Of a stretch of 64,000 bases of DNA, positions 22,957-25,053 are shown one piece after another. The DNA lies in NCBI GenBank assembly GCA_965232265.1, contig CBDDPH010000002.1, forward strand, positions 2,008,290 through 2,072,289. Reading direction: 5' to 3'. Each line of letters starts with the position of its first letter. Positions within the stretch are counted from its first letter, which is position 1. The DNA comes from Candidatus Latescibacterota bacterium. Its GTDB lineage: Bacteria > Latescibacterota > UBA2968. The translations under genes were made by a program, and so were the position numbers. The notes beneath the pieces are model-generated. The model was not told where the DNA came from. It made no database searches and saw only the letters and a program-made list of their open reading frames with translations.

Positions 22957-25053
22957 CTACGGACTGGGCACGAATTCGAGGCCTATTACTGATGGCCCAC
23001 TAGCTGGTGCTCCGCGAATCTTTAGGACATTGCGGCCATCAAGATCAGCAGACCAGATATTCTCGTTTACCCTGCCCTGGCTCCAATACATCTTGCCCTG
23101 GTCAGTATCCAAGGTTATGTGTTCCCTACGTATATCGGGAGCACCTTCGACAAGCAGTTCGGGTTCCGAGCCATCTAAGTTCGTTCGGTAGATACCTGCT
23201 CCACTACCGTGGTGGGCTCCAATAGCCTGGTAAATTTTTCTCGAGGCCGTATCCAACGTAAAAGTAGCGATGTATTTGGGGTATTCATGCCCCGATGCGA
23301 TAGGGATAGCTTCAGGATTGGAGCCATCCAAGTTCGTTCGGAAAAAACCAGTCCTTCTAAAATCCTCTATCCCTGAAGAACTTATATAAAATTTTTTCCC
23401 GACGGGATCGATTTCTAACTCGCGGATATGCCCGAATTTTTCGAAAGCAAGGAGTCGTTCTACATTGGAACCATCGAGGTTTGCCCTGTAGTAGTGGTAC
23501 CTACTAACTTGGTCCACCCAGTATATCTTGCGCTGCGTCAGGTCTAAACAAAAATCAACTATAACCCCCTCCCCACTAACAACAGCGACGCGTTCTCTGT
23601 TAGACCCATTCAAGTTCGCTCGCCAAATGCCGCTCTGAGACCTATTACGAACCACAAAGTTACTCCAGTACATCTTTCCGCCATTCACATCTACGGCGAA
23701 GGATGTGGAGAAATCCAATATCGACGGCGTACGATGAAAGATTGTTTTAGTCGAGAAGCCCTCCAGGTTCATTTGCACGATGCTACTTGTCTGGGCCTTA
23801 AGCGTAAAGAATAGCGAGCCTTTGGCATAGGCAGGGAAATTGACCTCTTGTAAGTCGTATCGCCCCGTTGACCGATTGTAAACCGCCTCCCGGATATTGG
23901 TCGAACTGCTCTCATCAAAGAATAGCAGATGGGTCAGGCGATACGCATCGCCTTTCGTGCTTCGCGCACTACTCGGCCAACCGCACACAGTTTCCGACTC
24001 AAAGTTGATTGCCGGACCCAGTGACTCAACCTTGTAATACACCCGGCTTTCCAGATCAACCGCATCCGTGGCAAAATCACAGCCCTTCAATTTGCCCATC
24101 AACATAAATGCCAGTGCCTGAGGGGAGGCGCCCGCATAGTATTTCTCTGGACTTCCCTGTACATCACCTCGCACGCTCACAAGCGTGGTCCCGTAACCGC
24201 TGACTAATCTTTGTTTTTGAAATGTCTGCCAATCCATCTGAGTGCTATCATCGCCACCACCGCCACCGCCACCGCCACCGCCACCGCCACCGCCACCGCC
24301 ACCGCCACCGCCACCACCACCACCGCCACCACCACCTTCACATTCGCTGCCAAACACATCCACAAACGACAGAAAATCACCCAAATCCACTTGCCCATTG
24401 CTGTCCAAATCCATCTTCGCATCAAAACCCGCATCCGACGGCGACTTGCCAAACACATCCACAAACGACAAAAAATCACCCAAATTCACGCTGCCATTCC
24501 CATCAAAGTCCCCAACACACACAGACGCAGACCCAAACCCGATCTTCGCTTTGGACACATCCAACGGGTCAACATCTCTCCCACTGGTCATTGACAAGCT
24601 CCTCACCAACAGCGTATCACCGCCGCCTATCGCACGCTTCACAGGCAATTTCACCTGACCCAAATACCCACTGTTAGGCACAGACACAGGCGTAATGGAC
24701 AACGCAGACAACTTGGCTGTGCCCGTACTGGACAGCGCATTACCCCGCCAATCTGTGCCCGATATGGGTCCGATATAGTCTGTAAAGGTCTTGCCTTGCA
24801 AGGCGAGTTCGATGGTATAGCCATTGGTAGGGTGTCCCTCGCCTGCGGGCACGAAGAGCTGAAAAGTGATGGTATCACCCACGGCTTTTTCTGGCAAGGT
24901 TTTGGTGCTGTCATTTTTTGCGGGGCTTTCGATTCGTGTATCCACCTGAAGTTTTAGGTTTGAGAACACACCCATGAATATCTGTGCGAAAGCCGGGGCA
25001 CAGAGCAACAGGGCGATGGTGCTCAGGGTAAAAGTTGTCATGCGTTTAGACAT
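22957..25053 (-). CDS. secreted YWTD (LDL-receptor class B) beta-propeller protein with internal dockerin-like repeat pair and poly-Gly linker
   Basis: Signal peptide MSKRMTTFTLSTIALLLCAPAFA. Dockerin-like duplicated EF-hand DFDGNGSVNLGDFLSFVDVFG / DLDSNGQVDLGDFLSFVDVFG. A linker of roughly 28 consecutive Gly. Several YWTD blades (KIYWVDQ...YRANLDGSN). Confidence 0.6.
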   Translation of the reverse strand: MSKRMTTFTLSTIALLLCAPAFAQIFMGVFSNLKLQVDTRIESPAKNDSTKTLPEKAVGDTITFQLFVPAGEGHPTNGYTIELALQGKTFTDYIGPISGTDWRGNALSSTGTAKLSALSITPVSVPNSGYLGQVKLPVKRAIGGGDTLLVRSLSMTSGRDVDPLDVSKAKIGFGSASVCVGDFDGNGSVNLGDFLSFVDVFGKSPSDAGFDAKMDLDSNGQVDLGDFLSFVDVFGSECEGGGGGGGGGGGGGGGGGGGGGGGGGGGGDDSTQMDWQTFQKQRLVSGYGTTLVSVRGDVQGSPEKYYAGASPQALAFMLMGKLKGCDFATDAVDLESRVYYKVESLGPAINFESETVCGWPSSARSTKGDAYRLTHLLFFDESSSTNIREAVYNRSTGRYDLQEVNFPAYAKGSLFFTLKAQTSSIVQMNLEGFSTKTIFHRTPSILDFSTSFAVDVNGGKMYWSNFVVRNRSQSGIWRANLNGSNRERVAVVSGEGVIVDFCLDLTQRKIYWVDQVSRYHYYRANLDGSNVERLLAFEKFGHIRELEIDPVGKKFYISSSGIEDFRRTGFFRTNLDGSNPEAIPIASGHEYPKYIATFTLDTASRKIYQAIGAHHGSGAGIYRTNLDGSEPELLVEGAPDIRREHITLDTDQGKMYWSQGRVNENIWSADLDGRNVLKIRGAPASGPSVIGLEFVPSP
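24253..24336. repeat. (GGN)n trinucleotide microsatellite encoding poly-glycine
   Basis: Perfect GCC/ACC repeats on the plus strand (= GGC/GGT on the coding strand) spanning 84 nt. Confidence 0.9.

Follow-up and report, generated by a model that had tools for sequence, protein, structure and literature searches.

A cohesin is a nine-stranded jelly-roll beta-sandwich of ~140–150 amino acids (aa), and a dockerin is a module of ~60–70 aa that consists of two ~22-residue segments, each with a 12-residue EF-hand-like Ca loop (Asp/Asn at positions 1, 3, 5, 9 and 12) followed by a helix; near-identical halves are the hallmark of dockerins with a dual binding mode. Outside cellulosomes, cohesin/dockerin proteins are described as widespread in a passage of PMC9012536 that cites Peer et al. 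2009, where Archaeoglobus fulgidus proteins are said to carry both modules and dockerin/cohesin proteins of anaerobic methanotrophic (ANME) archaea are also mentioned; the toxin-complex modules of Clostridium perfringens NagJ and NagH (PDB 2jh2, 2ozn and 2w1n) are further examples. Proteins with low-density lipoprotein (LDL) receptor class B repeats, a second relevant group, have been proposed as cell-surface proteins in Poribacteria (Kamke et al. 2014, PMC3909097), and sponge-associated Latescibacterota are rich in eukaryote-like repeats (PMC8163846). We analyzed a 64,000-nucleotide stretch of a Candidatus Latescibacterota genome (contig CBDDPH010000002.1, positions 2,008,290–2,072,289; hereafter the window), and within it a minus-strand gene whose product combines elements of both groups, a cohesin-like domain and a dockerin joined by a run of 28 glycines to a YWTD beta-propeller. 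In our judgment there is about an even chance that this product of an uncultivated bacterium of the FCB group is a secreted, non-enzymatic modular protein of the surface or matrix with a Ca-dependent, non-cellulosomal role in assembly or display and a spacer of hypermutable length. The features of the gene, and of its candidate partner in the window, are listed below in window coordinates.

22957..25107, minus strand: whole gene, defined from the open reading frame (ORF) list, translation, Shine-Dalgarno sequence and homologue starts
24985..25053, minus strand: predicted Sec-type signal peptide MSKRMTTFTLSTIALLLCAPAFA, cleaved before Q, judged by sequence and by alignment of homologues
24520..24975, minus strand: cohesin-like beta-sandwich, aa 45–196, from AlphaFold2 (AF2), Foldseek and a profile run against PDB sequences
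24337..24519, minus strand: dockerin, aa 197–257, two EF-hand-like Ca loops with helices, flanked by Cys197 and Cys256
24253..24336, minus strand: poly-glycine linker of 28 G, a GGT/GGC microsatellite with a hexanucleotide GGCGGT core, from codons and Tandem Repeats Finder (TRF)
23812..24252, minus strand: domain X, aa 286–432, an unannotated alpha+beta module of 147 aa
22960..23811, minus strand: six-repeat YWTD/LDL-receptor class B beta-propeller, aa 433–716, from Pfam, phmmer and motifs
22957–22959, minus strand: stop codon
50287..50427, minus strand: second dockerin of the window, at the C terminus of an NHL/Ig-like/FG-GAP/UnbV_ASPIC protein (50266–53592); candidate partner in trans

The order of modules in the protein is thus signal peptide, cohesin-like beta-sandwich, dockerin, 28-Gly spacer, domain X and propeller. 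The ORF list and translation give 716 aa from the first ATG, at 25107, with an AGGAGG Shine-Dalgarno sequence 7 nt 5' of it. The alternative start M19 at 25053, which an earlier note on this DNA had adopted, gives 698 aa and is the position where homologues begin in the alignment; either start is possible. The protein is predicted to carry a Sec signal peptide, whose [AS]FA-Q cleavage motif was kept in all aligned homologues that bear the same N-terminal cassette (signal peptide, cohesin-like domain and dockerin). A lipoprotein reading of the Cys in this signal peptide was set aside, as the Cys is missing in several members and the [AS]FA-Q site is universal. Membership in a defense system was rejected for want of a PADLOC match.

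Analysis of the dockerin revealed two dockerin-like segments, DFDGNGSVNLGDFLSFVDVFG at aa 200–220 and DLDSNGQVDLGDFLSFVDVFG at aa 233–253, whose Ca loops (DFDGNGSVNLGD + FLSFVDVFG and DLDSNGQVDLGD + FLSFVDVFG) lie 33 aa apart, and whose helices appear in the AF2 model as H165–174 and H198–207. The two halves are nearly identical, with GDFLSFVDVFG occurring twice, and the duplication is visible in the DNA as an internal repeat (24348–24412 and 24447–24511, 83% identity). This is the duplicated loop–helix architecture of a type I-like dockerin (PF00404). A search of PDB sequences with the family profile gave the dockerin 2y3n_B as the best match (E 6.7e-12, 58 of 61 positions), followed by X-dockerins at ~1e-9 (4u3s_B, 9e-10) and, lower, EF-hand pairs of calmodulin at ~1e-8; PF00404 itself was matched by all 18 family members tested at E up to 0.1 (best 2.2e-7). 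The assignment of aa 197–257 as dockerin-like is thereby supported at the sequence level. Like the type I dual-binding dockerins, among them that of Pseudobacteroides cellulosolvens Cel48 (2y3n_B), the module is a duplicated F-hand module of ~60 aa with near-identical halves. In contrast to cellulosomal type I dockerins, which are C-terminal and come with enzyme cargo, it is internal and N-proximal and has no enzyme cargo. The second dockerin of the window is 43% identical to it and was found by the family hidden Markov model (HMM) at E 2.4e-13; the large, secreted protein that ends in it contains NHL repeats, two HYDIN/ASH-type Ig domains, seven FG-GAP repeats and an UnbV_ASPIC domain, and its FG-GAP region includes a duplicated 150-bp unit (51372–51672, 94% identity).

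The domain between the signal peptide and the dockerin was assigned by fold. The AF2 model of aa 45–257 had a predicted local distance difference test (pLDDT) score of 91 and a predicted template modeling (pTM) score of 0.69, and consisted of a beta-sandwich of ~10 strands over 150 aa, followed by two helices; in size and in approximate number of strands this sandwich agrees with a cohesin. Cohesins or Coh-X-Doc chains made up over half of the top 50 Foldseek matches of the model in PDB, including 3kcp_A (E 4.8e-5), 4fl4, 6kgf, 2vo8, 2jh2_B (TM-score by target length 0.67, root-mean-square deviation 3.5) and 2w1n. When a profile of 16 family members was compared with PDB sequences, the four best matches were all to the cohesin of C. 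perfringens NagJ, at a weak E of 0.025–0.08 over 109 positions, so that NagJ is the best match by sequence profile and one of the best by structure. The junction between this domain and the dockerin measures only 0–3 residues. On the strength of the model, we regard the N-terminal domain as cohesin-like by fold, and not as a proven member of the cohesin family.

Comparison with homologous proteins revealed that the cassette is common to at least 23 cluster representatives (47–96% identity, typically ~60%), mostly from Latescibacterota-like metagenome-assembled genomes (MAGs), in which it is followed by a G/S/P-rich linker and by varied heads: domain X with a YWTD propeller, YWTD alone, a TolB-like propeller with leucine-rich repeats (LRR), CARDB with NHL, WD40, and a formylglycine-generating enzyme (FGE)-sulfatase with a metalloprotease. 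Among the matches listed, the cassette relatives in species-representative genomes were all from Latescibacterota (up to 55% identity), and relatives of the neighboring genes came from MAGs labeled Latescibacterota or Gemmatimonadota. One relative, P0005, keeps 95–96% identity up to the residues GSEC at the end of the cassette; directly after these come a proline linker and another head, which indicates that the linker is a seam for module exchange. The order dockerin, linker, X and propeller recurs in P0001-3, P0007, P0024 and P0025; of these, P0024 and P0025 are dockerin-only relatives (signal peptide, dockerin, X, propeller), as is, with other modules, the FG-GAP protein of the window. P0024 and the cassette-bearing P0012 probably come from one genome, both being reported on a contig of 6,340,849 bp. 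The presence of dockerin-only relatives beside cassette proteins fits pairing in trans.

As in the non-cellulosomal cohesin/dockerin proteins described so far, a sandwich and a Ca-binding dockerin are here attached to non-cellulolytic modules in one polypeptide, with no sign of a cellulosome. The locus differs from those systems in that cohesin-like domain and dockerin follow the signal peptide at once and adjoin each other almost without a spacer, as one N-terminal cassette, in the reuse of this cassette across a large paralogous family with swapped heads, in a cohesin-like module too divergent for Pfam, and in heads that are eukaryote-like repeats and not enzymes. No paper linking sponge or Latescibacteria proteins to cohesins or dockerins was found in the literature searched. 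These results bear on several statements of the earlier note. The duplicated Ca-loop segments that it described in the protein are present, and the FG-GAP protein does end in a related dockerin pair, as it had proposed. Its expectation that the segments would match dockerin HMMs held for the family profile, which finds solved dockerins best, and failed for the single sequence, which stays under the Pfam and NCBIfam cut-offs; structure prediction, for which it had called, returned the two dockerin helices in a model of high local confidence and of only limited pTM. Other statements have to be replaced: the N-terminal region, described there as an anonymous domain of ~190 aa, is the cohesin-like sandwich; the cohesin-like partner supposed to be encoded elsewhere and shared with the FG-GAP protein has a counterpart within the polypeptide itself, adjacent to the dockerin on its N-terminal side; and an internal dockerin, called unusual, is the norm in this family, because the at least 23 representatives share the N-terminal cassette in front of linker and head.

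From these data a mechanism can be proposed in which the protein would belong to a paralogous toolkit, in which one conserved cassette is combined, by way of a low-complexity linker, with ligand-binding heads that can be swapped. Once the protein has been exported by the Sec route, its dockerin, loaded with Ca, would bind the cohesin-like module of another cassette protein; that module would likewise receive the dockerin of a dockerin-only protein, of which the NHL/FG-GAP protein of the window is an example. The outcome would be a non-cellulosomal, Ca-dependent multiprotein assembly, presumably at the cell surface, from which the head of domain X and YWTD propeller would hang on a fully flexible glycine tether, free to bind a protein or glycan from outside the cell, possibly one of a host. 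Encoded by a hexanucleotide microsatellite, the tether could change its length in frame by replication slippage, and the linker could also serve as the seam for exchange of heads. Among the possible modes of pairing, binding in trans appears most likely because of the 0–3-residue junction, the symmetric dockerin and the dockerin-only relatives. A bolder version can be drawn, in which dozens of secreted cassette proteins in one Latescibacterota-type genome form a non-enzymatic analogue of the cellulosome: they would daisy-chain head to tail, capture dockerin-only proteins and build a combinatorial surface lattice of eukaryote-like heads (YWTD, LRR, NHL, WD40, TolB-like and domain X) for interaction with host or matrix, with the linkers as hypermutable tethers and as recombination seams for swapping between strains; we consider this version improbable. 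The locus is an unusual variant of known building blocks and no new kind of system.

Several observations weigh against an assembly role of this kind, mostly at the step of binding. The Foldseek scores of the cohesin-like domain were modest (E 5e-5 to 1e-3, TM-score 0.57–0.67), and sandwiches other than cohesins (the F-spondin reeler domain, BslA and CLIPPER) were interleaved at similar scores. No Pfam family, Cohesin (PF00963) included, was matched by this domain in 16 family members at E up to 1, and hhalign comparison of the family profile with P0088 and P0034, both of which have Pfam-recognized cohesins, revealed no relation. The dockerin of the studied protein scored 16.5 bits against Pfam Dockerin_1 (PF00404) in the whole protein and 20.9 bits as an isolated segment (cut-off 22.9), and 22.4 bits against NCBIfam dockerin_GC (cut-off 29), and is under both curated cut-offs. 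The pTM of 0.69 neither supports nor excludes docking of the two modules in cis. Module anatomy, the family-wide cassette with its changing heads, the microsatellite codons and the strain-specific position of the gene are shown by the data; pairing in trans, location at the surface and the nature of the ligand are predictions. Binding of a dockerin by the cohesin-like domain is likewise a prediction from model and sequence, as are the Ca dependence of that binding and, for this gene, the variation in tract length; the association of the source organism with a sponge or another host is suggested by its relatives. Finally, no membrane or cell-wall anchor was identified in the protein.

These observations leave some room for a different arrangement, which we hold to be unlikely, in which the dockerin connects X and propeller to a cohesin-bearing scaffold or anchor, a separate protein from another part of the genome that the FG-GAP protein would use as well; the N-terminal domain would then be an unrelated sandwich, for example one that binds carbohydrate or matrix. 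A dockerin supported by the family profile and the existence of dockerin-only proteins in the window and among the relatives agree with such a scaffold, as do the missing Pfam Cohesin match of the N-terminal domain and the similar Foldseek scores of non-cohesin sandwiches; moreover, as no anchor was identified in the protein, anchoring must in any event depend on another component. However, the only cohesin-like module found in the 64-kb window is that of the studied protein itself, and cohesin-like domain and dockerin are inherited together in 23 representatives, which is hard to explain if they are functionally unrelated. In addition, no multi-cohesin scaffoldin was seen among the relatives inspected, apart from P0017 and P0020, which have two copies of the cohesin-like module.

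The contiguity and co-conservation of the two modules, and their prediction as parts of one confident AF2 model, could also mean that they pair in cis, or that the dockerin is a mere Ca-binding cap, so that the N terminus forms a closed, inert foot of a soluble secreted or periplasmic binding protein without any assembly. A self-contained dockerin is indeed suggested by the two flanking Cys, which covary: in all 22 members that have the first Cys the second is present too, and of the four close members in which one is missing, none has the other, Tyr taking the place of the second. This pattern suggests a disulfide clasp between Cys197 and Cys256 that ties the termini of the dockerin together. 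Ruminococcus flavefaciens ScaA reportedly has a clasped dockerin; the termini would be tied in both, in the studied protein by a disulfide and not by hydrophobic stacking. On the other hand, a junction of 0–3 residues should give the dockerin helices little slack to reach the usual cohesin face, the geometry between the domains is uncertain at the pTM obtained, and the two-fold symmetry of the dockerin, together with the dockerin-only relatives, is better explained by binding in trans. We therefore doubt the closed foot about as much as the separate scaffold, and prefer assembly in trans.

The spacer between the dockerin and domain X is a run of exactly 28 glycines (aa 258–285, 84 nt) encoded by GGT and GGC codons only, in the order (GGT)3 GGC (GGT)4 (GGC GGT)9 GGT GGC, in which TRF recognized a repeat of period 6 with 12.8 copies and 95% matches. 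The share of GGY among glycine codons was 67% in the 27 other genes of the window, and 28 GGY codons out of 28 would arise from codon usage alone with P ~1e-5; the strict GGC/GGT alternation points to a recent expansion of the 6-nt unit. Family linkers are G/S/P-rich and 9–35 aa long, and the longest other glycine run in the 448 proteins fetched was 10, so that the run is extreme among the proteins compared. P0008 and P0075, both of which have the cassette, show no difference over 737 aligned residues other than one additional linker unit of 11 aa (DGGGSGGSGSG), which indicates that changes in repeat number occur in family linkers. In-frame expansion and contraction of the glycine tract by slippage is plausible on these grounds, since changes by a 3/6-nt unit stay in frame and alter the length; for the same reason, on/off switching by frameshift was ruled out. 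The tract resembles the bacterial contingency loci, being a long, near-perfect simple-sequence repeat inside a putative surface-protein gene with copy-number change of a linker repeat in a relative, and differs from them in that its unit changes the length and provides no on/off switch. Another homopolymeric glycine run that joins two folded extracellular domains is found in maize chitinase ChitA, whose polyglycine linker is cut by fungal polyglycine hydrolases, with cleavage sites numbered only up to Gly6 in the relevant part of PMC9912923. Compared with what is given there for ChitA, the run described here is bacterial, has 28 residues and is encoded by a near-perfect hexanucleotide microsatellite. 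Such a run is maximally flexible and a potential target of Gly-Gly endopeptidases.

Long reads, and many paired short reads, exceed the 84 nt of the tract in length. That the tract is an assembly or consensus artefact (a collapse, an expansion or a chimeric join, the real gene having a short G/S/P linker or being two genes) is suggested by a glycine run far outside the range of relatives, by the proneness of low-complexity repeats to assembly error and by the absence of the exact protein from other records, but is very improbable, as the tract leaves the reading frame intact and has homologous modules in the correct order before and after it, which argues against an artefact, the same order from dockerin to propeller is found in the six relatives named above, the usual GSEC and linker-end residues of the family flank the tract, and the related genomes are, going by record names, apparently high-coverage contigs of several megabases. 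With respect to other records, no exact copy of the protein with either start was present in the collections searched, where the best full-length homologue was only 44% identical and no closer ortholog was found; a metagenome scan with the X and propeller part returned only a 28%-identical relative, and look-ups of the neighboring genes gave no exact match.

The C-terminal propeller was recognized by six NL[DNE]G motifs at aa 447, 498, 543, 592, 643 and 688 (spacing 45–51 aa) and by five degenerate YW-type motifs (YWSN, YWVD, FYIS, IYQA and YWSQ). Pfam Ldl_recept_b (PF00058) was matched at 31.7 bits (cut-off 21) and DUF5050 (PF16472) at 30.3 bits (cut-off 27), and phmmer comparison of this part with PDB returned LRP4 (2.3e-27), LRP2 (9.5e-19), LRP6 (8e-12) and also LDLR, which supports a predicted six-bladed YWTD propeller. 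The protein ends 29 residues past the last NLDG motif (…LEFVPSP*), with no match to an epidermal growth factor (EGF) module; bacterial YWTD proteins are generally without a C-terminal EGF module. The studied protein shares six YWTD-type repeats, a signal peptide and a presumed extracellular role with the LDL class B proteins of Poribacteria and with metazoan LRP4, LRP6 and LDLR. It differs from the metazoan proteins, in which an EGF module packs on the propeller, by the absence of EGF. Its motifs are degenerate, and its propeller is fused to the cohesin-like/dockerin cassette and to domain X.

Domain X, placed between the glycines and the propeller, gave a confident AF2 model (pLDDT 90.5, pTM 0.85) of an alpha+beta fold with two long helices, and no Pfam match. 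Across its family the module is ~135 aa long, two Cys (KGCxF…TVC) are invariant and an FFDE motif is present. Foldseek found no significant neighbor in PDB, the best being Rxt3-type chains (E 0.026–0.28) and the LCCL domain 1jbi (E 0.16, TM-score by target length 0.47), and in BFVD the best match was a protein of an Erwinia jumbo phage (2.9e-5), with a Klosneuvirus protein annotated as 'LCCL domain protein' at 0.024. The fold is possibly LCCL-like, going by the model; compared with LCCL (PF03815), which has four conserved Cys, domain X has two invariant Cys, no Pfam match and weak fold matches. Identity with the apicomplexan 6-Cys (s48/45) domain had been raised by a 42-residue profile match over KGCDF…VC (E 0.06–0.09). 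The 6-Cys domain is an all-beta sandwich with a GCDF start motif and six Cys, and this candidate was ruled out by the alpha+beta model of domain X and by the lack of any 6-Cys structure among the Foldseek matches. The domain X profile found only 125 clusters (50% identity) among 1.84 billion protein representatives, all within large modular proteins and sometimes in two copies, and the partners in these proteins (P0076–P0194) were often dockerin, cohesin, cadherin, LRR, WD40 or tails of the type IX secretion system (T9SS); in P0088, a Pfam-recognized cohesin is directly followed by a dockerin. As a confidently folding, unannotated module, domain X merits a family entry. In this half of the protein the earlier note was right about the glycines, counted there as roughly 28 in GGC/GGT triplets, and about the YWTD propeller, with both Pfam families over their cut-offs, and wrong in placing the propeller directly after the glycines, where the 147 aa of domain X intervene; its picture of a propeller tethered to the dockerin by a glycine stalk stands insofar as the run joins folded modules, and fails insofar as the tethering is not direct.

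If the cassette does self-assemble, the logic of cohesin and dockerin would be in use well outside polysaccharide degradation, where it would organize modules for adhesion or host interaction in a poorly known, uncultivated phylum, and it would offer a testable handle on the display of 'eukaryote-like' repeat proteins in symbiont-type bacteria. The cassette of ~215 aa and the pure-glycine tether may also be compact parts for the engineering of protein display. Should binding fail, the locus would still be an example, of modest interest, of modular shuffling combined with an extreme in-frame microsatellite.

Housekeeping genes, among them LepA, GuaA, RecD2 and a PurM-like gene, mark the window as chromosomal, and the studied gene lies in an islet that is strain-specific. 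The islet and a palindrome found in it and elsewhere in the window are given below.

~20612..26050, no strand: strain-specific islet of 5.4 kb, missing in three related genomes (L023, L024 and L025)
777, 4405, 21922, 25371, 25409, 25950, 25988, 27164, 42083 and 44738: sites of a repetitive extragenic palindrome (REP)-like sequence

In those three genomes the flanks are 87–92% identical at the nucleotide level, and the GFO oxidoreductase gene directly abuts the purple acid phosphatase gene; the studied gene is therefore accessory. Besides the studied gene, the islet contains a 327-aa ORF (20901–21884, plus strand), an AbiC/AbiP-like gene (22094–22783) and a 925-nt region 5' of the studied gene that is rich in REP-like palindromes. 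The REP-like sequence is a 22-nt palindrome, GGGGCGAAAAATYTTTCGCCCC, with ~10 sites in the window and 0 expected by chance; four of the copies form two tandem pairs upstream of the studied gene (25365–25433 and 25944–26012), and ORFs that encode GRKIFRPY/AKDFSPL peptides are spurious products of these palindromes. Two direct copies of a 38-nt sequence (82% identity) were also found, the first at 20732–20769, immediately within the islet's left boundary, and the second at 22837–22874, where 173 nt separate the stop codon of the studied gene from the AbiC-like gene; the repeat is possibly a terminator or the scar of a recombination.

Between the GFO gene and the studied gene, a small RNA gene is possible at 25675–25910 on the minus strand. 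The sequence there has a promoter-like TTGACA-16-TATTCT at 25909–25882, and the RNA of ~200 nt would be strongly structured (minimum free energy −89.3 kcal/mol, z = −6.7) and end in a 14-bp hairpin with a U-run (25712–25682). Rfam gave no match in the window at the gathering threshold, and a sub-threshold match of this region to the c4-2 antisense RNA (RF02944; 27.8 bits versus 41, E 0.002). Elsewhere in the window, a 246-bp tandem repeat of 2.0 copies (14944–15431, 83% identity, TRF score 679) coincides with only a weak ORF (14953–15462, minus strand). Two ORFs had no Pfam match, the 327-aa ORF of the islet and an ORF of 787 aa (28411–30774, plus strand), the latter of which is conserved in synteny in related genomes.

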